A DNA stretch of 12,867 nucleotides from a virus. Below the pieces are notes generated by a model that saw only the letters and a list, made by a program, of their open reading frames with translations, was not told where the DNA came from and ran no database searches. Position 1 is the first letter of the stretch. The number at the start of each line of letters is the position of its first letter. The stretch lies in the UHGV virus genome UHGV-1686525; one strand, given 5' to 3'. The position numbers and the translations under genes are program-made. Positions 945 to 12,867 of this stretch are shown here, in pieces.

Positions 945-1367
945 ATGGCGACTGAACCAAAAGCTGGTCGCCCCTCTGATTATATGCCGGAGGTGGCTGA
1001 CGATATCTGCTCGTTGCTTTCTTCTGGCGAAAGTTTGCTGAAAGTATGTAAGCGTCCTGGTATGCCGGATAAGTCCACTGTTTTCCGCTGGTTGGCAAAG
1101 CATGAGGATTTTCGCGACAAGTACGCGAAGGCAACTGAGGCACGAGCTGATTCTATTTTCGAAGAGATATTCGAAATTGCTGACAATGCGATTCCAGATG
1201 CTGCTGAGGTGGCAAAGGCAAGACTTCGCGTTGATACTCGCAAATGGGCGCTGGCCCGAATGAATCCCCGTAAGTATGGCGACAAGGTAACTAACGAGCT
1301 TGTCGGTAAGGACGGCGGCGCAATCCAGATTGAAACATCACCGATGAGCACTCTATTCGGAAAATGA
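945..1367 (+). CDS. terS: Terminase small subunit (P22 gene 3 position; Sf6 gp1-type, 140 aa from the second ATG)
   Basis: Lies immediately upstream of and overlaps the large terminase (ATGA overlap at 1364-1367). The protein MATEPKAGRPSDYMPEVADDICSLL... matches my recollection of the Sf6 gp1 small terminase, including its 140-aa length and N-terminal DNA-binding region. The track start at 939 (MNM...) has a GAG Shine-Dalgarno directly abutting it; ATG 945 has better spacing (GTGAG about 7 nt upstream). Confidence 0.88.
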   Translation: MATEPKAGRPSDYMPEVADDICSLLSSGESLLKVCKRPGMPDKSTVFRWLAKHEDFRDKYAKATEARADSIFEEIFEIADNAIPDAAEVAKARLRVDTRKWALARMNPRKYGDKVTNELVGKDGGAIQIETSPMSTLFGK

Positions 1368-2779
1368 CCTCGATTAATCCTATCTTTGAACCGTTCATTG
1401 AGGCGCATCGCTACAAAGTCGCCAAAGGCGGTCGAGGTAGCGGCAAATCATGGGCAATTGCGAGGCTGCTTGTTGAGGCGGCGCGTCGGCAGCCTGTGCG
1501 TATTCTCTGCGCTCGTGAACTGCAAAACAGTATCAGCGATTCGGTAATCCGGTTGCTTGAAGACACCATAGAGCGGGAAGGGTATTCGGCTGAGTTTGAA
1601 ATTCAGCGTTCCATGATTCGTCATCTCGGAACGAATGCTGAATTCATGTTCTACGGCATCAAAAACAACCCGACGAAGATTAAATCGCTCGAAGGCATTG
1701 ATATCTGCTGGGTGGAAGAAGCGGAAGCGGTAACGAAGGAATCGTGGGATATCCTGATACCAACCATCCGTAAGCCGTTCTCTGAAATATGGGTAAGCTT
1801 CAACCCGAAAAACATACTCGACGATACCTATCAGCGATTCGTTGTAAATCCTCCCGATGATATTTGCCTGCTGACGGTGAACTACACCGACAACCCGCAC
1901 TTTCCTGAAGTTCTCCGTCTGGAGATGGAAGAGTGCAAACGCAGAAATCCGACACTGTATCGTCACATCTGGCTTGGTGAGCCAGTAAGCGCAAGTGATA
2001 TGGCAATCATCAAACGTGAATGGCTTGAAGCCGCAACCGATGCGCACAAGAAACTCGGATGGAAAGCGAAAGGCGCTGTTGTCTCTGCACATGACCCATC
2101 AGATACAGGGCCGGATGCTAAAGGTTATGCATCGCGTCACGGTTCGGTAGTTAAGCGCATTGCCGAAGGTCTGCTGATGGACATCAACGAGGGCGCTGAC
2201 TGGGCTACTTCTCTGGCGATTGAAGACGGCGCTGACCACTACCTGTGGGATGGTGATGGTGTTGGTGCCGGGCTACGCAGACAGACAACGGAAGCGTTCT
2301 CCGGCAAGAAAATAACCGCCACGATGTTCAAGGGCAGCGAATCGCCATTTGATGAAGATGCACCATATCAGGCCGGAGCATGGGCTGATGAAGTCGTACA
2401 GGGAGACAACGTTCGCACTATTGGTGATGTGTTCCGCAATAAGCGAGCGCAATTCTATTACGCGCTGGCTGACAGGCTGTATCTGACATATCGGGCGGTT
2501 GTCTACGGTGAGTATGCAGACCCCGACGACATGCTGAGTTTCGACAAAGAAGCGATAGGCGAGAAGATGCTGGAGAAGCTGTTTGCAGAACTGACGCAGA
2601 TTCAGCGCAAATTCAATAACAACGGGAAGCTGGAGCTTATGACTAAGGTCGAAATGAAGCAGAAGCTCGGTATTCCATCTCCTAACCTGGCTGATGCGTT
2701 GATGATGTGTATGCATTGCCCGGAGTCGGCTGCGCAACCCGACTATTCCAGTTACTCAATTCCTTGTGGTGTAGGTTGA
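1364..2779 (+). CDS. terL: Terminase large subunit (P22 gene 2 position; ATPase/nuclease, 471 aa)
   Basis: Walker A P-loop KGGRGSGKS near the N-terminus (VAKGGRGSGKSWAIA); Walker B-like hydrophobic run ending in acidic residues (IDICWVEEAEA); acidic-residue-rich C-terminal half consistent with an RNase H-like nuclease domain; size and position between small terminase and portal. Confidence 0.95.
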   Translation: MTSINPIFEPFIEAHRYKVAKGGRGSGKSWAIARLLVEAARRQPVRILCARELQNSISDSVIRLLEDTIEREGYSAEFEIQRSMIRHLGTNAEFMFYGIKNNPTKIKSLEGIDICWVEEAEAVTKESWDILIPTIRKPFSEIWVSFNPKNILDDTYQRFVVNPPDDICLLTVNYTDNPHFPEVLRLEMEECKRRNPTLYRHIWLGEPVSASDMAIIKREWLEAATDAHKKLGWKAKGAVVSAHDPSDTGPDAKGYASRHGSVVKRIAEGLLMDINEGADWATSLAIEDGADHYLWDGDGVGAGLRRQTTEAFSGKKITATMFKGSESPFDEDAPYQAGAWADEVVQGDNVRTIGDVFRNKRAQFYYALADRLYLTYRAVVYGEYADPDDMLSFDKEAIGEKMLEKLFAELTQIQRKFNNNGKLELMTKVEMKQKLGIPSPNLADALMMCMHCPESAAQPDYSSYSIPCGVG

Positions 2780-2780
2780 T

Positions 2781-4979
2781 ATGGCAGAAAAAAAGATGAC
2801 TGACTGGCATCGCAAGGTGCTGTGCAACTTTGATAATGCCTGGTCAGCAACGCAGGATATGCGTGAGCAGATTATTGAAGCTCAACGTTTCGTCCGGGTG
2901 TCCGGCGCACAGTGGGAAGGCAGCACAAACGCTGGTTACTCATTTGATGAAGGCAGGTTTGAGCATTACCCGCGCTTTGAGCTGAATAAGATTGCCCGTG
3001 AATGTGATCGCATCATTGGCGAGTATCGACAGAATCGCATCAGCGTTAAATTCAGGCCGAAGGATGACAAGGCATCGGAAGCGTTAGCCGAAAAGATGAA
3101 CGGCAAATTCCGCGCTGACTATCAGGAAACATCCGGTGGCGAAGCGTGTGATAACGCATTTGATGATGCCGTAACTGGCGGATTCGGTTGTTTCCGCATG
3201 TGTGCCGATTACGAAGATGAAATGGATCCGAGTAACGAACAGCGCCGTATAAGCCTTATCCCGGTTTACGACCCAGCGACATGCGTCTTCTTCGATCAGG
3301 ACAGCAAGCAATATGACCGCTCTGATGCTATGTGGGCTTTGGAAATGTTCTCCATGACACCTAAAGCGTTCGAGGCTGAATACCCTGATTCCATCGCGGC
3401 AGGCCTTTCTCGTGATGACACTGGCACTCAATATGACTGGTCAACTCCTGATGCTATCTATGTTGGTCGCTACTACGAAGTTCGCATAGAGAAGGTGAAG
3501 CTCTCAGCATGGCGCAACCCTGTTAGCGGAGAAACGGCAATCTATGATGAAGATCAAATCAAAGATATTGTCGACGAGCTAACCGATGGTTCATTCGAAC
3601 TGATCGGTGAGCGGACAGTGAAGAAACGCCGCGTTTATTGCGGTCTTCTGTCTGGCGCTGAATGGCTGGAAGAACCGAAGCGTATTCCGGGCGAACATAT
3701 TCCACTCATCCCGGTATATGGGCGTCGCTCATTTGTTGATAATCAGGAGCGAATCGAAGGCCACGCAGCAAAAGCGATGGATGCACAGCGTCTTGAGAAC
3801 CTGATGGTTTCCATGATTGCAGATAACGCTACTCAGGCTGGCGGTGATGGCATTCCTGTAGTTGATGTTGACATGATTCCTGGTCCTCTCGCCACTCATT
3901 GGGCGGAGCGCAACAAAAAGCGCCCGGCGTTCCTGCCGATGGTCAGTCTGAAAAACAAAAACGGAGATATTACTGCGCAGGCTCAGGTAAGTAGTTATAC
4001 ACCTCCGACACAAATGCCTCCTGCTCTTGCCGGGTTATTGCAGTACACCGGAACGGCTATTCAGCAAATTACCGGGGCTTCGCAGCTTGAGAACATGCCG
4101 AGCAACGTTGCTACCGATACCGTTGATAGCATCTTTAACCGGATGGATACGCAGTCCTATATCTACATGGACAACATGGCTAAATCCATGCGCCGCGCTG
4201 GCGTCGTGTGGCTTTCTATGGCGCGTGAGGTCTATGGCAGTGATACGCCGATGCGTATCGTTAATGAGGACGGCAGCGATGATGTGGCGCTGATGACTGG
4301 TGAAGTTGTTGACCGTCAGACAGGGCAGGTTATCGCGCTTAATGACCTTTCGCAGGGCAACTATGAAGTGACTGTCGATGTTGGTCAGTCGTTCGCTACT
4401 CGCCGTGATGCAACGGTTAAGTCGTTACTTTCCATGCTGGCACTTATCCCACCAGGAACGCCGAAGCACGACCTTGTATCGTCGATGATTCTCGACAATA
4501 TGGACGGCGAAGGGATGGACGACCTTAAAGAATACAACCGCAATCAGTTGCTTCTGTCTGGAGTTATCAAGCCGAGAACCCCAGAAGAACAGCAGATGGT
4601 TGAGCAGGCGAAACAACAACAGGCCAGTCAGCCAGATCCGGCTATGGTTGCTGCGCAAGGTCAGCTTCTTGCTGGTCAGGCTGAATTGCAGAAAGCGCAG
4701 AACGAACAGGCAGCCATTCAGGTTAAAGCATTCCAGGCACAGACTGATGCTCAGGTTGCAGCGGCAAATGTTGTGAAAATCCTCGCATCTGCCGATAGCC
4801 AGCAGAAATCTGATATCCGCGAGGCTCTGAAACTGCTCGGACAGTTCCAGCAACAGCAAGGAGACAATGCCCGTGCTGATGCAGAGCTTGTCCTGAAAAG
4901 TCAGGCACAGGGCCATGCGCAGCGCATGGACATCAGCAGCATCCTGCAAAAATCAACTCAGCAACAACCACAGCAGTAA
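2781..4979 (+). CDS. Portal protein (P22 gene 1 position; 732 aa) with a long Q/A-rich helical C-terminal extension
   Basis: Starts 1 nt after the terL stop; 732 aa, close to the P22 portal (about 725 aa); C-terminal ~130 residues are Gln/Ala-rich and predicted helical, like the P22 portal barrel domain; synteny terL-portal-scaffold-coat. Confidence 0.92.
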   Translation: MAEKKMTDWHRKVLCNFDNAWSATQDMREQIIEAQRFVRVSGAQWEGSTNAGYSFDEGRFEHYPRFELNKIARECDRIIGEYRQNRISVKFRPKDDKASEALAEKMNGKFRADYQETSGGEACDNAFDDAVTGGFGCFRMCADYEDEMDPSNEQRRISLIPVYDPATCVFFDQDSKQYDRSDAMWALEMFSMTPKAFEAEYPDSIAAGLSRDDTGTQYDWSTPDAIYVGRYYEVRIEKVKLSAWRNPVSGETAIYDEDQIKDIVDELTDGSFELIGERTVKKRRVYCGLLSGAEWLEEPKRIPGEHIPLIPVYGRRSFVDNQERIEGHAAKAMDAQRLENLMVSMIADNATQAGGDGIPVVDVDMIPGPLATHWAERNKKRPAFLPMVSLKNKNGDITAQAQVSSYTPPTQMPPALAGLLQYTGTAIQQITGASQLENMPSNVATDTVDSIFNRMDTQSYIYMDNMAKSMRRAGVVWLSMAREVYGSDTPMRIVNEDGSDDVALMTGEVVDRQTGQVIALNDLSQGNYEVTVDVGQSFATRRDATVKSLLSMLALIPPGTPKHDLVSSMILDNMDGEGMDDLKEYNRNQLLLSGVIKPRTPEEQQMVEQAKQQQASQPDPAMVAAQGQLLAGQAELQKAQNEQAAIQVKAFQAQTDAQVAAANVVKILASADSQQKSDIREALKLLGQFQQQQGDNARADAELVLKSQAQGHAQRMDISSILQKSTQQQPQQ

Positions 4980-5069
4980 TTAACCCATAACGTGCAATGG
5001 CTGTCTTTATGAGGCCTGGCACCCTATTGCCTTCCGATGGGCTGAACATCGAGTAAACAGGGGTAACAA

Positions 5070-5963
5070 ATGGACCAGATGGCAGAAAACACACCAGAAG
5101 TTGAAATCGAAAACGACGCGTCAGAGCAGATTCCTGATGATGTCGAACTGGCTGAAGAAGTTGAAATAGAAGATGGCAGTGAGTCCTCCGGCAATGATGC
5201 AGAGGAAGCTACTGAAACTGATGACGACGAATCAGAACAGGAATTCTACTTTGGTGACGAAAAGCTGGATTCGCCAACCAGCGAAGATAGCGCAGAGCAT
5301 GGACTGGTAAAACACCTGCGCAAGACGATTAAAGAGAAAGACCGCGAACTGAAAGAACTGATGCGTCAGTCTCAGAAACCCGTCGAGCAGCAGTCGGTAA
5401 TCACTCAACCACCGCGAATGCCAAAACTGGACGATGAGGACATCGGTTTCGATGAAGAAATCTACCAGCAACGCATGGCTAAGTGGGCAGAGGATAACGG
5501 AAAGTACCAGCAACAGGAGATGGCTCGCAAGCAGAAGGAGCAGGAGCTTCAGGCTGCTTATCAAGAGCGATTATCCAAATATCAGCAACGTGTTAAGGCT
5601 CTCAAGGTTCCTGGCTATCAGGAAGCAGAACAGGCCGTACTCGAGGAAATCCCCATCGAGACACAAAACGCGATCCTGTTTGAGTCAGAGAAGCCGGAAA
5701 TCGTTGTTCTGGCACTCGGTCGCAACGCTGAACTGCGCAAGCAACTGGCAGAAGCTACCAACCCCGTAGCAATTGGTCGTCTGCTGGAACGTATCGAATC
5801 GAAGGCCAAAATCATGCCAAAAGCAAAAAACACGGCAGCCACAACCCCGACAGTTAAGGGGAGCAGCGGCGCAGTAATCAATAACCTCGACAAACTGAAA
5901 GCCAAGGCGCTGGAAACTGGTGACTGGACGCCGTATTTCGCCGCTAAAAAGGCAAAAAAATAA
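5070..5963 (+). CDS. Scaffolding protein (P22 gene 8 position; 297 aa)
   Basis: Position between portal and coat; size close to P22 gp8 (about 303 aa); highly charged, helical, coiled-coil-like composition; basic C-terminal helix-turn-helix-like end (...LDKLKAKALETGDWTPYFAAKKAKK) resembling the P22 coat-binding C-terminus (...YRKLKAKLKGIR); very acidic N-terminal ~70 residues. Confidence 0.85.
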   Translation: MDQMAENTPEVEIENDASEQIPDDVELAEEVEIEDGSESSGNDAEEATETDDDESEQEFYFGDEKLDSPTSEDSAEHGLVKHLRKTIKEKDRELKELMRQSQKPVEQQSVITQPPRMPKLDDEDIGFDEEIYQQRMAKWAEDNGKYQQQEMARKQKEQELQAAYQERLSKYQQRVKALKVPGYQEAEQAVLEEIPIETQNAILFESEKPEIVVLALGRNAELRKQLAEATNPVAIGRLLERIESKAKIMPKAKNTAATTPTVKGSSGAVINNLDKLKAKALETGDWTPYFAAKKAKK

Positions 5964-5981
5964 CCTATCGGAGCATTAAGC

Positions 5982-7235
5982 ATGGCTAACCAATTAGCAA
6001 AAGACCTTGAAATCATGTTCGAAAACTACGTTGAAGGCTTTGAGGCCGCCTGTGTAGTTTCCCGTAACGCTAAAAAATTCCGTCCTGGTGATACAGCAAT
6101 GCAGCGAGCAGGTGATGTTCTGTATCGTCCGCAGCATTACCACATGAACATTGAGGAAGGCCTAGACCTCAGCGGCAAAACGCCAACAGCACTGGTTCAG
6201 CGCCTTGTTCCTTCTGTGTTCAAGGAGCCGAAAAACATTCTGTACACTCTGGATGCGCGTGAAATGCGTGACCCGGAACATAAAACTGAAGCTGGTCGCG
6301 CCGCAGGTATGCGCCTTGCTGCACAGATTGACTCTGACCTGATTTCCATGGTTACGCAGCGTGCTACTAACGTGATCAAGATGGCTGACTCAACCACAGG
6401 TTCACAGGGCCGTGATTTGTGGAACTGTGCGGCAGGTATTGATGCCACCATGACGGCGATTGGTGTACCTCAGGGTATCAACCGTCGCTCTTTCTGGAAC
6501 CCCTTCAACTACAAAGACCTTGCTGGCGAGCTTGGTCACCGTGCCTATGCTCAGGGCGCAACCCTGACAGCATACGAAAAAGCGCAAATCCCTCCGGTTG
6601 CGTCCTTCGATAGCTACAAGACCGATATTTCTGGTCGTGTTCCGAAGGGTACAGCAACTTCCATTACGCTGGCAGAAGCACCTGCGCACAAGGTTGAAGC
6701 GAAAGATGCTAACGATATGCCAGTGGATAACCGGCAGGGGACCATTACGGTATCTGCTGAAGGTTTGCAGGTTGGCGATGCGTTTACCATCGCAGGGGTG
6801 AATTCTGTACACCAGATCACCAAAGATACCACCGGGCAGCCGCAGGTATTCCGCGTTCTGGCAGTAAGCGGAACGACAGTAACTATCTCCCCGAAAATTC
6901 TGCCGCCTGACAACGCGGATGTCGCCAGCCGACCATATGCAAACGTTGATGCTAATGCGGCAAGTAGCGCAGCAATCACCATTCTCAACAAAAATGCCGC
7001 ACCGGCTAACCTGTTCTGGGCTGATGGTTCTGTTGAACTGATGTACGGCAAGCTGGCGTTCCCAACTGGTCAGGGTCCACAAGTAATGACAGCAACCACC
7101 GAGCAGGGCGCTACGCTGATCATGTCTTACGCCTTCGACCACATCAAAGGTGTAACCACTGCGCGTTTCACCACCCTGTACGGTTGCTCTGTACTTGTTC
7201 CTGAATATACGGGCATCGTTATTGCCGGGCAGTAA
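5982..7235 (+). CDS. Major capsid (coat) protein, P22 gene 5 position (417 aa)
   Basis: Follows the scaffold gene with GGAG upstream (5969-5972); 417 aa, close to P22 coat (430 aa); contains an FWAD motif in a C-terminal context similar to P22 coat (..NLFWADGS.. vs P22 ..NVFWADDA..); followed by a strong intrinsic terminator. Confidence 0.92.
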   Translation: MANQLAKDLEIMFENYVEGFEAACVVSRNAKKFRPGDTAMQRAGDVLYRPQHYHMNIEEGLDLSGKTPTALVQRLVPSVFKEPKNILYTLDAREMRDPEHKTEAGRAAGMRLAAQIDSDLISMVTQRATNVIKMADSTTGSQGRDLWNCAAGIDATMTAIGVPQGINRRSFWNPFNYKDLAGELGHRAYAQGATLTAYEKAQIPPVASFDSYKTDISGRVPKGTATSITLAEAPAHKVEAKDANDMPVDNRQGTITVSAEGLQVGDAFTIAGVNSVHQITKDTTGQPQVFRVLAVSGTTVTISPKILPPDNADVASRPYANVDANAASSAAITILNKNAAPANLFWADGSVELMYGKLAFPTGQGPQVMTATTEQGATLIMSYAFDHIKGVTTARFTTLYGCSVLVPEYTGIVIAGQ

Positions 7236-7242
7236 TTTTGGT

Positions 7243-7265
7243 GGGGCTTCGGCCCCATTTTTATT
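7243..7265 (+). terminator. Rho-independent terminator/stabilising hairpin directly downstream of the coat gene
   Basis: GGGGC-TTCG-GCCCC (5-bp GC stem extendable to 7 bp, UUCG tetraloop) at 7243-7256, followed by ATTTTTATT (7257-7265); starts 8 nt after the coat stop codon. Confidence 0.8.
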
Positions 7266-7276
7266 GGGAGAAGACA

Positions 7277-7465
7277 ATGGCACGAACAATGCTCTATAAG
7301 CCGGGCAACATGATCACCTGTGGTCAGTTTGCTGTCGATTACATCATTGTTGATGACGAAGAAGTTAAATCTCACCTGAAAAAAGGCTGGGTAAAAACTC
7401 CTGAAGAAACCGCAACGAAGCAAAAAGTGGCTAAGGCGGAAGAAGATGGCGAAAACGAAGGGTGA
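7277..7465 (+). CDS. Small hypothetical protein (62 aa from ATG 7277) between coat and gp4; same position as the small ORF between genes 5 and 4 in P22
   Basis: The track ORF 7238..7465 would start inside the terminator hairpin. The internal ATG at 7277 is preceded by GGGAGAAG (7267-7274) and is the more plausible start. The 3' end overlaps the gp4 start by 20 nt. Confidence 0.55.
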   Translation: MARTMLYKPGNMITCGQFAVDYIIVDDEEVKSHLKKGWVKTPEETATKQKVAKAEEDGENEG

Positions 7466-7907
7466 TCTCGTTCTTAAGGCTTTACGAAAAGCCGGGCTGT
7501 ATTCCAATGCCACGTTGACAGATGCCGACCCTCAGGCAATTGAAGATGCCATTAATGACCTCGAAGACATGATGGCAGCATGGCAGGCGAAAGGTATCGA
7601 GCTTGGATATCAGTTTGCGGATACAGAAAACGGCATCATGCCGTTACCTGACGATGATTCAGGTATCCCTGCATGGGCAAATGATGGCGTCGCTTTGAAG
7701 CTCGCTGTGCAAGTGTGCATGGATAACGTCATTCAGCCGTCAGACGCTCTCCTTGCCGCTGCTGACAGTGCATATCAGACAATCTGCATCGCTTTAACCA
7801 AAATACCACCACTTGAGCGGCGAAATGACATGCCTCGCGGTAGTGGTAACAAAAGCGCGTTTACGTGGAATCGGTTTTACATCGAGAAAGATGATCCGAG
7901 TACGTGA
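7446..7907 (+). CDS. Head completion/tail adaptor protein, P22 gp4-like (153 aa)
   Basis: N-terminus MAKTKGDLVLKALRKAGLYSNATLTDADPQAIEDAINDLEDMMAAW closely parallels the P22 gp4 N-terminus as I recall it (..KTKGDLV..ALRKLG..ATLTD..PQ......DLE.MMA.W); C-terminal ..MPRGSGN..F.. also shared; correct position after coat. Confidence 0.88.
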   Translation: MAKTKGDLVLKALRKAGLYSNATLTDADPQAIEDAINDLEDMMAAWQAKGIELGYQFADTENGIMPLPDDDSGIPAWANDGVALKLAVQVCMDNVIQPSDALLAAADSAYQTICIALTKIPPLERRNDMPRGSGNKSAFTWNRFYIEKDDPST

Positions 7908-7916
7908 GGTGAATAA

Positions 7917-9335
7917 ATGCCGATTCAGCAACTTCCGCTCATGAAAGGTGTCGGCAAAGACTTCCGAAATGCCGACTATATCGACTATCTGCCAGTGAAT
8001 ATGCTGGCTACACCCAAAGAAATCCTGAACAGCAGCGGATATCTTCGCTCATTCCCGGGCATTGCCAAACGCTCTGATGTGAACGGTGTATCGCGCGGCG
8101 TCGAGTACAACATGGCGCAGAATGCTGTTTATCGTGTGTGTGGTGGGAAGCTCTACAAAGGAGAAAGTGAAGTCGGTGACGTCGCCGGAAGTGGTCGCGT
8201 ATCAATGGCGCATGGTCGAACATCACAGGCTGTAGGCGTTAATGGTCAACTGGTCGAGTATCGTTATGATGGCACGGTTAAAACCGTCTCAAACTGGCCT
8301 ACAGACAGTGGATTCACGCAGTATGAGTTAGGTTCAGTTCGCGACATTACTCGCTTACGTGGGCGTTATGCGTGGTCAAAAGATGGTACTGATTCATGGT
8401 TCATCACGGACCTTGAAGACGAATCACATCCTGACCGTTACAGCGCACAATATCGTGCTGAGTCTCAGCCTGACGGCATCATCGGCATCGGAACATGGCG
8501 AGACTTCATCGTCTGTTTTGGTTCATCGACGATTGAGTATTTTTCCCTGACTGGTGCAACCACCGTTGGTGCTGCTTTGTATGTCGCACAGCCATCGCTG
8601 ATGGTGCAAAAAGGCATCGCCGGAACTTACTGCAAAACGCCGTTTGCTGATTCCTATGCGTTTATCAGCAATCCGGCAACAGGTGCGCCGTCTGTGTATA
8701 TCATCGGCTCCGGTCAGGTATCACCAATCGCCAGCGCGAGCATTGAGAAAATACTACGCTCCTACACTGCTGATGAACTGGCTGATGGCGTGATGGAATC
8801 GTTGCGGTTTGATGCGCATGAGTTGCTGATTATCCATCTTCCGCGTCACGTCCTCGTGTACGACGCATCTTCAAGTGCCAATGGTCCGCAATGGTGTGTG
8901 CTGAAAACAGGCCTGTATGACGATGTGTACCGCGCTATCGACTTCATTTACGAAGGCAATCAGATAACGTGCGGCGATAAGCTGGAGTCCGTGACCGGGA
9001 AATTGCAATTCGATATCAGCAGCCAGTACGACAAGCAACAGGAACACCTGCTGTTTACTCCGTTGTTCAAAGCGGATAACGCCAGAGTTTTCGACCTTGA
9101 AGTTGAATCTTCAACTGGCGTTGCGCAGTATGCTGACCGCCTGTTCCTCTCTGCAACTACTGACGGCATCAATTACGGGCGTGAGCAGATGATTGAGCAG
9201 AATGAACCGTTCGTTTACGACAAACGCGTTTTGTGGAAGCGTGTCGGGCGAATCAGGAAAAATGTCGGCTTCAAATTGCGCGTTATCACGAAGTCACCTG
9301 TCACTCTGTCTGGCTGCCAGATAAGGATTGAGTAA
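7917..9335 (+). CDS. Head completion/tail hub protein, P22 gp10-like (472 aa)
   Basis: Exactly the length of P22 gp10 (472 aa) and in the syntenic position between gp4 and the tail needle; GAGGTGA Shine-Dalgarno upstream; stop overlaps the needle start (TAATG). Confidence 0.85.
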
Positions 9336-10288
9336 TGGCTGATTCGAATCTCAATGAGCCGGTAATCATTCAGACTACACGACTCGACACATCAGTCCTT
9401 CCACGCAATATCTTCTCGCAGTCGTATCTGCTTTACGTTATCGCACAGGGCACTGATGTTGGTAACGTGGCTAACAAGGCCAACGAAGCAGGGAAGGGGG
9501 CTTATGATGCACAGGTGAAGAATGATGAGCAGGATGTCACCCTTGCAGACCATGAATCCAGAATTGAAGCTGCTGAAGCAACTCTCATCAATCATGAAAA
9601 TAGAATTGCAGCAGCGGAAAGCACTCTTGCAGATCATGAAACAAGGATTACGGCTGCTGAAACAGAGCTGGCTGATCACGAGACGCGAATTGCTGCCAAT
9701 GAATCTGAGTTAGCAAACCATGATGCGCGCATAACTCAGAATACAACTGATATCGACGCACTTGATACCAGGCTCACAGCGGCAGAGGGAAGTATTTCGA
9801 CGCTACAAAGCACAGTTGGTGATCACTCAACAAGAATATCTGCGCTTGAGTATGCCACCACGCGCAAGAAATCAGAGGTTGTTTACTCAGGAGTATCAGT
9901 AACCATTCCAACAGCGCCGACCAACCTTGTTAGCCTACTGAAAACGCTCACGCCGTCATCCGGCACGTTGGCACCATTCTTCGACACCGTTAACAACAAG
10001 ATGGTTGTGTTCAACGAGAACAAAACCTTGTTCTTCAAGCTGGCGATCGTCGGGACGTGGCCCAGCGGAACAGCCAACAGGTCAATGCAGCTAACCTTTT
10101 CCGGCTCTGTTCCTGACACACTGGTAAGCAGCCGCAACTCGGCGACAACGACCGATAACATCCTGTTAGCTACGTTCTTCAGCGTGGATAAAGACGGCTT
10201 TCTTGCCACAAATGGCAGTACGTTAACCATTCAGTCGAATGGTGCGGCGTTTACTGCCACAACCATCAAAATCATTGCGGAGCAGTGA
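9335..10288 (+). CDS. Tail needle (cell-envelope-penetrating plug), P22 gp26-like N-terminal domain and trimeric coiled coil, with a longer C-terminal beta-rich knob-type domain (317 aa)
   Basis: N-terminal ~65 aa ([43 protein letters not shown]...[13 protein letters not shown]) are near-identical in pattern to the P22 gp26 N-terminus as I recall it; followed by five 14-residue heptad-pair repeats ([14 protein letters not shown] and similar) typical of the needle coiled coil; the C-terminal ~145 aa are Thr/Ser/Val-rich and non-helical, unlike the short P22 tip. Confidence 0.92.
9545..9754 (+). repeat. Five imperfect tandem 42-bp (14-codon) repeats encoding the heptad-pair coiled coil of the tail needle
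   Basis: Protein units [14 protein letters not shown] / [14 protein letters not shown] / [14 protein letters not shown] / [14 protein letters not shown] / [14 protein letters not shown]; DNA units share the gc(a/t)ga(c/t)ca(t/c)ga...(a/c)g(a/g)att...gc.gc.ga pattern but are diverged at synonymous positions. Confidence 0.8.
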
Positions 10289-10767
10289 TGGAAATAAAGC
10301 TCATCGATAATCCGGTGAAGCTTGCAGAATTCCTCAACAACCCGGCAAACACGGGAAATATCGTAGACAGTGGAGATAAATACTACATCAAGCCTGATGC
10401 GGTATATCTCGGCATCTACGAAGGATTAGTGCTGGCTGGGGTTCATGAAGTGCGTAACTTCTGGCATAGCGTTGTTGAATGCCATGCTGTGTACGACCCC
10501 GGATTCCGAGGCGAATATGCACTGCAAGGGCATCGATTATTCTGCAAATGGCTTCTCGAAAACTCACCATTCCTTAACAGCATCACCATGGTTCCTGACA
10601 TCACCAAATACGGACGGGCAATTATCCGTTTGCTTGGCGCTACCCGTGTTGGTCACCTTGATGATGCTTATACCAGCAATGGAAAGCCTGTAGGCATCAC
10701 GATTTATCAGTTACCGCGCTCAAAATACGAGGAGCTAAAGAATGTTAATTTTCCAGATTGCCAATAA
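10288..10767 (+). CDS. P22 gp14-like virion assembly/ejection-associated protein (159 aa from ATG 10288)
   Basis: Syntenic position directly after the tail needle; ATG 10288 shares a base with the needle stop (GTGATG); the track start at 10285 is a GTG one codon upstream. Assignment is by position and size only. Confidence 0.65.
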   Translation: MEIKLIDNPVKLAEFLNNPANTGNIVDSGDKYYIKPDAVYLGIYEGLVLAGVHEVRNFWHSVVECHAVYDPGFRGEYALQGHRLFCKWLLENSPFLNSITMVPDITKYGRAIIRLLGATRVGHLDDAYTSNGKPVGITIYQLPRSKYEELKNVNFPDCQ

Positions 10768-11395
10768 GCACCTCAGCAAAGCTGTTTACTGCAAAGGCGG
10801 CAGTGATGGCGGTTCAAAAGCCCAGGCACGCGCAACTGAAAAGGGTATCGAATTGCAGCGTGAAATGTGGCAAACGAACATGCAAAACCTTGCACCGTTC
10901 ACGCCACTCGCTCAACAGTACGTATCAGAGTTGCAGAATCTTTCCTCTCTTCAGGGGCAAGGTCAGGCGCTTAACCAGTATTACAACTCCCAGCAGTACA
11001 AAGACCTTGCTGGTCAGGCGCGTTACCAGAGTCTGGCAGCAGCAGAGGCAACGGGTGGATTAGGCTCTACAGCAACAGGAAACCAGTTAGCATCAATCGC
11101 ACCTACACTCGGTCAAAACTGGCTGTCAGGTCAGATGAACAACTACAACAATCTGGCAAATATCGGCCTTGGTGCTCTTACAGGTCAGGCAAACGCTGGA
11201 CAAAACTACGCCAACAACGTCAGCCAGTTGTATCAACAGCAGGCGGCAGCATCTGCGGCTAATGCGAATAAACCATCAGGATTTCAGAGCGCCCTGGGTG
11301 GAGCGGCAGCAGGTGCAGCTGCAGGTACTGCAATCATGCCTGGTTGGGGTACAGCAATTGGTGCTGGCGTCGGTCTTCTTGGTTCACTTTTTTAA
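10742..11395 (+). CDS. Ejection (internal virion) protein, P22 gp7-like (217 aa), Q/N/G/A-rich with a C-terminal Gly/Ala-rich hydrophobic segment
   Basis: Position after the gp14-like gene and size close to P22 gp7 (about 229 aa); low-complexity Gln/Asn/Gly composition; C-terminus GGAAAGAAAGTAIMPGWGTAIGAGVGLLGSLF looks like a membrane-inserting segment, consistent with an ejection protein; the start overlaps the gp14 end by 26 nt. Confidence 0.72.
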   Translation: MLIFQIANKHLSKAVYCKGGSDGGSKAQARATEKGIELQREMWQTNMQNLAPFTPLAQQYVSELQNLSSLQGQGQALNQYYNSQQYKDLAGQARYQSLAAAEATGGLGSTATGNQLASIAPTLGQNWLSGQMNNYNNLANIGLGALTGQANAGQNYANNVSQLYQQQAAASAANANKPSGFQSALGGAAAGAAAGTAIMPGWGTAIGAGVGLLGSLF

Positions 11396-11407
11396 TGGAG
11401 GTGTCTC

Positions 11408-12802
11408 TTGGCTACATGGCAACAGGCTGGTAATTCAGGCGCGCTTCTTGCCGGGTTAGGCGGCATGAACTCCAACGCTCCAAGAGCAAGTGATGCAGAC
11501 GCCACGCTTGCATACATTCGACAGAATAACGAGATGGAGCGTTCAGGACGTAATAACGTTGGCTTGCAGGCTTTGCAGGGCATTTCATCTGTCATGGATA
11601 TGTATAAGCAGATGGATCAGCAGAAGCGACAGCAAGAGTTTCAGCAGGCTTATGCTGATGCATATACATCTGGTGACCGCGATGCAATGCGAAAACTGGC
11701 ATCACAGTATCCTGAGCAGTTTGACGCTGTAAGAAACGGCATGAAATTTGTCGATGAAGACCAGCGTTCCACTGTCGGCACACTGGCAGCAAGTGCCAGA
11801 CTGGCAGCTTCATCTCCAGAAGCCATGATGTCATGGTTGCAGAACAACTCATCTGAGCTTACTCGTGCCGGAGTAGACCCTCTGGATGTGGCGAAAATGT
11901 ATCAGCAAAATCCACAAGGTTTCACAGAGTTTGTTGATCACCTTGGAATGGCTGCACTTGGTCCAGAACAATATTTTCAGGCGCAAGACAGAATCGTTGG
12001 GCGTGAGATTGATCGCGGAAAACTTGCAGAGACAATCCGCAGCAATCAGGCTGGCGAGGCGCTAACAGCACGAGGTCAGAACATCACGATGCGCGGTCAG
12101 GATTTATCTGCTTCTACTGCGCGACGCGGGCAGGATTTGGCAATGCAGCGAGCGTCAACAAGAGGAACCGCTGGGAATGATGAGCGTACAGTTCAGTTAT
12201 CAGATGGCAGAACTGTAACGGTTGGCGGGAAACTTCACGGCGCTGGGGCAAATGCGTTCTACGAAGGCATCGACAACGAGGGGAATATGGTTCGCGTTCC
12301 TGCCAGTTCAATCGCAGCGCCTGCAACATCGTCTGCATCAGCACAAAACTATGCCATGAAGAAGGATATCGACGCGATCGCAAATGCAGACGCTTCTGCT
12401 CTCGATTTCATGACAGGAATGACCGGCGGCGCAGGTAACCCGGCAATTGGTGCTGATGTTCGCAGCCGATTAACAGGAAAAGAGCAGCGCCAGTTATATA
12501 ACTCAGCACAACGTATTCAGGGCAGAATGCAGAATCAGGGTGTGGCGGCAGCAAGGGACATGGGGGCCAGTGGTATTAACACCGTTGCAGAAGCGAAGAT
12601 GTATTTTCAGGGGATGCCGCAGGTTGACTATTCAAGCCCGGAGGCTATGCAGCAGTCGATTCGTGAGATTCAGGAATACACCAACAATTACAACCAACAA
12701 TATAACGTTAATGTTGGTAAATCTCAGCGGCAGCAATCTCAACCTGCACAGGTATCACAGCCAGCAGCCAGCAGTAACTTTTCTTCACTATGGGGTGATT
12801 AA
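11408..12802 (+). CDS. Ejection (internal virion) protein, P22 gp20-like (464 aa); probable TTG start
   Basis: Size close to P22 gp20 (about 471 aa) and syntenic; GGAGG (11397-11401) at 6 nt from TTG 11408; the first in-frame ATG (11465) lacks a comparable Shine-Dalgarno; Q/A/G-rich composition. Confidence 0.72.
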
Positions 12803-12867
12803 TGGCTAAAGCATGGAAAGATGTTATCGCCTCTCCACAGTATCAGGCGTTAGCACCAGAACAAAAA
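12803..12867 (+). CDS. 5' end of the next ejection protein gene (P22 gp16 position), truncated by the window end ([22 protein letters not shown]...)
   Basis: ATG 12803 immediately follows the gp20-like stop (TAA 12800-12802); open to the end of the window; assignment by synteny only. Confidence 0.5.

Follow-up and report, generated by a model that had tools for sequence, protein, structure and literature searches.

Does the C-terminal end of the tail needle encoded in this viral DNA take part in choosing the host? We analyzed a stretch of 12,867 nucleotides (UHGV virus genome UHGV-1686525), referred to here as the window. The original prediction was that the last ~145 residues of the needle form a divergent knob-type domain, like the knobs of Sf6/HK620-type phages, and that this domain is a likely determinant of host interaction. 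We found that the domain belongs to a described family. Taking identity and function together, we are highly confident that region 9851-10288 encodes an ordinary Sf6/HS1-type tail needle knob of a P22-like prophage, and that this knob would act on the kinetics of DNA delivery. The features discussed below are collected in Table 1.

Table 1. Features of the tail needle gene and its neighbors, with positions in the window.
Feature	Position	Strand	Basis or remark
Upstream gene, gp10 homologue (head closure / tail hub)	7917..9335	+	PHROG 578, E 9.8e-230
Tail needle gene, homologue of P22 gene 26 and Sf6 gene 9	9335..10288	+	317 aa, HS1 type
N-terminal virion-binding plug domain, residues 1-69	9335..9541	+	similarity to gp26
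Trimeric coiled-coil shaft, residues 70-172	9542..9850	+	heptad register 70-172
C-terminal knob domain, residues 173-317, TNF-like jellyroll	9851..10285	+	PF16532, similarity to 4K6B/3RWN, model
E181, L-glutamate contact (by HS1)	9875..9877	+	invariant, 37/37 homologues
K235-L236-A237; K235 is an L-glutamate contact (by HS1)	10037..10045	+	K235 invariant, 37/37 homologues
S266-R267-N268, phosphate triad, distal tip near the 3-fold axis (by HS1)	10130..10138	+	R267 in 36/37 homologues
S283-V284-D285; S283 and D285 are L-glutamate contacts (by HS1)	10181..10189	+	S283 in 34/37 homologues
Downstream gene, gp14-like DUF2824 / head morphogenesis protein	10288..10767	+	PHROG 651, E 1.1e-72; strain 317 annotation

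The region is the 3' part of a tail needle gene. The whole open reading frame matched PHROG 1030 ('tail needle knob') with an E value of 2.1e-135. Codon 173 starts at base 9851, and 9851-10288 encodes Y173 to Q317 followed by the TGA stop codon (10286-10288). The domain had been predicted to start at residue 173; the boundary chosen for experiments lies one residue away (HS1 codons 174-317; PMC3741392).

The needle gene lies between homologues of gp10 and gp14, as expected in a P22-like virion assembly operon, and overlaps each of them by one base. The TAA of the gp10 homologue overlaps the needle ATG (TAATG, 9333-9337), and the needle TGA overlaps the ATG of the gp14-like gene (TGATG, 10286-10290). 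These genes are part of one long operon on the + strand of the window. In the PHROG scan, the order on this strand was small and large terminase, portal, scaffold, coat, gp4-like adaptor, gp10-like head closure, needle, gp14-like DUF2824 protein, and gp7-like and gp20-like ejection proteins. This is the canonical virion-assembly order of P22-like phages (Lederbergvirus), and it is identical in P22, Sf6, HK620, prophage HS1 and the prophage of E. coli strain 317.

The junction that follows the gp14-like gene varies among these genomes. In the window, the open reading frame of the gp7-like ejection protein (10742-11395) shares 26 bases (10742-10767) with the end of the gp14-like gene. The same 26-base overlap is annotated in strain 317. 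The overlap is 14 bases in 720R6, and there is a 2-base gap at this junction in Sf6, HK620 and P22.

The strain 317 prophage is a close relative of the window. The needle gene is 100% identical in DNA sequence to the strain 317 gene (WP_021527637.1), which RefSeq annotates as 'tail needle knob protein', and positions 1279-12867 of the window are 99.7% identical to that prophage. Positions 437-1278, downstream of a DUF2560-like gene and including the 5' part of the small terminase region, are not shared with the strain 317 prophage and are a mosaic replacement. The match of a 95-aa open reading frame at 445-732 to phrog_11049 is confined to the first half of that family (positions 1-94 of 182). 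This frame is followed by about 200 bases that hold no + strand open reading frame of at least 60 aa, except for the overlapping 563-745. The frame at 445-732 may be a truncated gene.

We found that the knob-coding DNA is under selection as a protein in the + frame. It differs from the DNA for the Sf6 knob at 21 of 435 nucleotides, and the changed codons are synonymous in 19 cases and non-synonymous in 2. This ratio indicates purifying selection on the knob and coding in the + frame. An antisense open reading frame of 115 aa (9883-10230, - strand) lies wholly within the knob-coding DNA. We rejected it as a gene, and it is probably spurious, because of the 19:2 ratio in the + frame and the strong match of that frame to a protein family.

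The C-terminal region stands apart in composition from the rest of the needle. Residues 173-317, described beforehand as rich in Thr, Ser and Val, contain 16.6% T, 11.0% S and 8.3% V. The three together make up 35.9% of this region, as against 22.7% of residues 1-172, where Ala, Glu and Asp are abundant instead. The 24-residue peptide quoted as an example is present.

Profile and sequence searches identified the domain. The needle matched Pfam family PF16532 (Phage_tail_NK, Sf6-type phage tail needle knob) with an E value of 4.7e-108 and a score of 358.9 bits (cutoff 27), and profile positions 1-175 of 175 aligned to needle residues 136-317. A sequence search of the PDB returned the knobs of HS1 (4K6B, E 3e-90) and Sf6 (3RWN, E 2.4e-89), with 99% identity to the 4K6B chains and 97% identity to the 3RWN chains over the aligned residues. 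Within the knob itself, 144 of 145 residues are the same as in HS1 (PDB 4K6B) and 143 of 145 are the same as in Sf6 (PDB 3RWN).

The predicted fold agrees with this assignment. We modeled residues 165-317 (window 9827-10285) as a single chain with AlphaFold2, using an alignment of 37 homologues. The model had a mean pLDDT of 93.7 and a pTM of 0.87. It begins with a short helix, the end of the coiled coil, and continues with eight beta strands and two short helices, which bears out the expectation of a beta-rich C-terminus. The search for a jellyroll or TNF-like fold that had been suggested as a check gave a clear answer. In Foldseek, the model superposed on 4K6B and 3RWN with a TM-score of 0.90 and an E value of about 1e-24. 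The next matches, with TM-scores of about 0.5, were PRD1 P5, EDA/TNF, C1q heads, TNF-like lectins and Bacillus exosporium proteins. The TNF/C1q-like matches had E values of 1e-4 to 1e-3 and sequence identities of 6-17%. We regard the likeness of the modeled knob to the TNF/C1q superfamily as a resemblance of fold, rather than as demonstrated homology.

After the phage knobs, the neighbors in fold space include BC2L-C and PLTL, two TNF-like lectins with glycans bound in their solved structures, as well as ExsFA/BxpB from the Bacillus exosporium. On the model, the lectins provide a fold-level lead only for possible binding of carbohydrate by the knob.

The knob is unlike the tips of P22 and HK620 needles. 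BLASTP aligned residues 173-317 to P22 gp26 only at a non-significant E value of 0.31 over 30 residues and returned no alignment with HK620 gp26. On these grounds, we rejected homology of the knob to either tip. HK620 gp26, a protein of 233 aa, carries no knob; its tip is of the P22 type and was classed as subtype A of such tips by Leavitt et al. (PMC3741392). The domain had been likened to both Sf6 and HK620 needles, and alignment to both had been proposed. The Sf6 half of that comparison holds, given the near-identity of the two knobs, and the HK620 half does not. The predicted divergence of the domain holds with respect to P22 only, and not with respect to HS1, Sf6 or the curated Pfam family.

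Its profile score, its jellyroll fold, its C-terminal place on a gp26-type plug and heptad shaft, and its contact residues (below) are all those of the PF16532 family. We found nothing against identification as an Sf6/HS1-type knob. The domain is already known and is neither new nor divergent, being one residue away from a knob for which structure and part in infection were both published in 2013.

The remainder of the needle is of the P22 type, as had been stated. Residues 1-72 are identical to P22 gp26 at 58 of 72 positions, to Sf6 at 67 and to HK620 at 68. In the PDB sequence search, the plug domain matched the P22 gp26 chains 2POH, 3C9I and 8EAP. The N-terminal domain serves as the plug of the portal channel (PMC3741392). 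The BLASTP alignment of the needle to P22 gp26 (E 1e-53) runs through the coiled coil and ends at residue 159.

The predicted coiled coil is also there, and it is built of repeats. Residues 70-139 (window 9542-9751) are five tandem units of 14 residues, each of two heptads or 42 bp, with the pattern LADHxxRIxAAExx. TRF reported a 42-bp tandem repeat in 2.5 copies at 9538-9641. Compared with that of Sf6 gp9, the shaft has 35 extra residues (5 heptads), and the published counts are 16 heptads in HS1 and 11 in Sf6 and P22 (PMC3741392). Needles of the HS1 type have 317 aa, the Sf6 needle has 282 aa, and many knob-bearing proteins in the database have 254 aa. The steps between these lengths, 35 and 28 residues, are whole numbers of heptads. 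These differences are consistent with a change of needle length by unequal recombination between shaft repeats. Other Pfam families that appeared in the scan (MscS_porin, ATG16, crescentin, tropomyosin and others) were all below their cutoffs. We rejected these matches, which reflect coiled-coil composition. The NCBIfam scan of the needle likewise gave only sub-threshold coiled-coil noise (e.g., SMC, PspA) and no specific model.

We found that the ligand-contact residues of the HS1 knob are all kept in the window. In HS1, L-glutamate is contacted by E181, K235, S283, D285, L290 and K312, and phosphate is bound by the triad S266-R267-N268 (PMC3741392). Each of these residues is present here, and the HS1 numbering is unchanged. 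We measured conservation in 37 diverse homologues with identities down to 52% (Table 1). Position 285 is D in 29 of the 37 and E in the other 8. The glutamate-contact residues were previously found to be completely conserved in 21 homologues from phages that are not P22-like, including T4-like phages and Mu-like Vibrio prophages (PMC3741392).

The sole difference between this knob and that of HS1 is A237 (codon 10043-10045), which is S237 in HS1 and lies two residues from K235. Position 237 is S in HS1, Sf6 and 720R6. Among the 78 cluster representatives listed with the motif, it is S in 73, V in 4 and A in 1. As far as can be judged from the sequence, S237A is a rare change and the only local peculiarity of the knob.

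Knobs of this kind are widespread. Of 5426 complete E. coli genomes, 946 contain matches to parts of the needle gene, and in 164 of these the match covers at least 80% of it. Many near-identical knobs are found in the protein database on needles of differing length, and 40 of the 120 cluster representatives listed are 254 aa long. Further knobs that we collected from the protein database (P0065-P0087 and P0040) include some, on needle-like proteins of Enterobacter, Citrobacter, Serratia, Yersinia and Salmonella enterica, that are 68-84% identical to this one. S. enterica subsp. salamae has a knob with 97% identity. We inspected four of these needle-like proteins at full length (P0065, P0067, P0069 and P0078), and all four have a gp26-like N-terminus. 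The survey of Leavitt et al. (2013) reported knob divergence of at most 4.9%, with knob-type needles only in P22-like phages of Escherichia and Shigella and in 0 of 48 Salmonella ones (PMC3741392). The hosts and the divergence of knobs in the protein database are wider than in that picture.

Published experiments bear directly on what such a knob does. Hybrid P22 phages that carried HS1 codons 174-317 or Sf6 codons 69-282 in place of their own needle tip gave normal titers and infected Salmonella normally (PMC3741392). Single and double mutants of the glutamate contacts had normal titers and normal kinetics of K+ release, and 10 mM external L-glutamate had no effect (PMC3741392). The rate of K+ release, which is linked to ejection, was 40-70% of wild type in the HS1-knob hybrid only; in the Sf6 hybrid, whose needle has the Sf6 knob and most of the Sf6 shaft, it was near wild type (PMC3741392). 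Because the Sf6 hybrid behaved in this way, the effect of the HS1 knob may be one of matching between knob and shaft rather than of the knob itself. Virions tipped with the T4 foldon were infectious, with a relative infectivity of about 0.13 and slower K+ release (PMC3741392). The authors' conclusion was that the needle tip is unlikely to contribute to host specificity and that it influences the kinetics with which DNA is delivered, and they left room for a role specific to the native host (PMC3741392). The domain swaps proposed in the original prediction had thus already been done, with no change in host specificity, and the results, like those for the glutamate-site mutants, count against the predicted role of the knob as a determinant of host interaction.

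Other functions of the knob can be weighed against these results. The knob could lack any specific binding function and be mainly a structural cap that stably trimerizes the coiled coil, holds it in register and serves as a bulky mechanical tip. An unrelated trimerization domain, the foldon, can replace the tip in infectious virions; P22-type and Sf6-type tips are interchangeable although unrelated in sequence; and the 'drill bit / hole punch' role that the authors propose scales with the diameter of the tip (PMC3741392). However, the foldon-tipped virions are impaired, and capping alone leaves the strong conservation of the pocket across distant types of phage unexplained. We consider it somewhat unlikely that capping is the main role. 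It is quite unlikely that the knob is a specific receptor-binding domain for an outer-membrane protein or an LPS element of E. coli or Shigella that contributes to host range and triggers release of the needle. The fold is of the kind seen in receptor-binding knobs and TNF-like lectins (PRD1 P5, TNF/EDA, C1q, BC2L-C and PLTL), the knob is under strong purifying selection, and both the host distribution in the 2013 survey and the room left for a native-host role speak for such a function (PMC3741392). Yet Salmonella infection by P22 was unaltered by the HS1 and Sf6 knobs and persisted with the foldon (PMC3741392), and in Sf6 the mutations that change host range and dependence on Omp proteins are in the tailspike (PMC9400499). 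Moreover, knobs at least 95% identical occur on prophages that have different tailspikes, in many E. coli lineages, and such near-identity runs opposite to the diversification that receptor-binding tips typically show.

The pockets raise the further question of whether the knob senses a small molecule or a component of the envelope, with the pockets binding a Glu-like moiety during penetration and so promoting release of the needle. The invariance of E181 and K235 and the near-invariance of S283 and D/E285 in homologues down to 52% identity are in favor of this, as are the full conservation of the contacts in the 21 non-P22-like homologues (PMC3741392) and the TNF-like lectins among the fold neighbors. 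However, the pocket mutants and the external glutamate had no effect in the published assays (PMC3741392), and the conserved residues might serve the stability of the trimer instead. We judge a sensor to be very unlikely. It is conceivable that the knob has a role specific to its native host, E. coli or Shigella, and the version in which a Glu-like or glycan component of the E. coli envelope binds in the pockets, an activity invisible in P22/Salmonella chimeras, seems highly unlikely. If that version were true, the S237A change, which lies two residues from K235 on the strand, would adjust the affinity for the ligand or the kinetics of ejection in this prophage lineage.

Our results are most consistent with an ordinary Sf6/HS1-type knob that acts in DNA delivery. 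Given its near-identity to the solved structures, the knob would be a globular trimer of roughly 45 Å in which each of the three chains forms one TNF-like jellyroll. This trimer would cap a coiled-coil shaft of 16 heptads whose N-terminal end plugs the channel of the portal and tail hub. Three inter-subunit pockets would hold L-glutamate, and a phosphate site would lie on the 3-fold axis. A homotrimer with bound L-glutamate and phosphate is what identity at 144 of 145 positions to 4K6B predicts, for a sequence that here carries S237A. From the work on HS1 and Sf6, we infer that the needle would reach past the tailspikes, touch the outer membrane first and be released as ejection starts. The knob would then set the speed of envelope breach and DNA delivery and not the choice of host. 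Primary host specificity would lie in the tailspike, and contact with Omp proteins is probably made there too, as the mapping of Sf6 host-range mutations and of the inferred Omp contact to the tailspike rather than the needle suggests (PMC9400499). The functional part of this explanation depends on chimeras in a P22/Salmonella background.

Region 9851-10288 needs no follow-up as a candidate for a new determinant of host range. The family, atomic structure and distribution of the knob and the domain swaps are already published, and automatic annotation already gives 'tail needle knob protein'. For prophages of the HS1/Sf6 type, host specificity is better sought in the tailspike. To the question of the glutamate pocket, the window adds little beyond the natural S237A variant.

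Among needles studied before, that of HS1 (EcHS_A0316, from the prophage of E. coli HS) is the closest match. It has the same length (317 aa) and is identical at 308 of 317 positions, with no gaps. Eight of the nine substitutions are in the N-terminal domain and shaft, and one (S237A) is in the knob. The flanking genes are the same, with gp10 upstream and DUF2824/gp14 downstream. The sites of integration differ: the HS1 prophage is next to tRNA-Thr/proA, whereas the strain 317 prophage, nearly identical to the window, is next to ybhB/bioA.

The Sf6 gp9 needle has a knob that differs at only two positions (A237S and A305S) and has the same ligand-contact residues. In contrast, its shaft, besides being five heptads shorter, is much more divergent in sequence. 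The gp26 needles of P22 and HK620 (PDB 2POH, 3C9I, 5BU5) share a homologous plug domain and coiled-coil shaft, the same place in the virion and the same gene order. Their tips (about residues 141-233), however, are unrelated in sequence to the knob, and P22-type tips have a different fold (PMC3741392). The domains of PRD1 P5, EDA/TNF, C1q, BC2L-C and PLTL bind receptors or glycans, and the needle knob resembles them at the level of the fold only.
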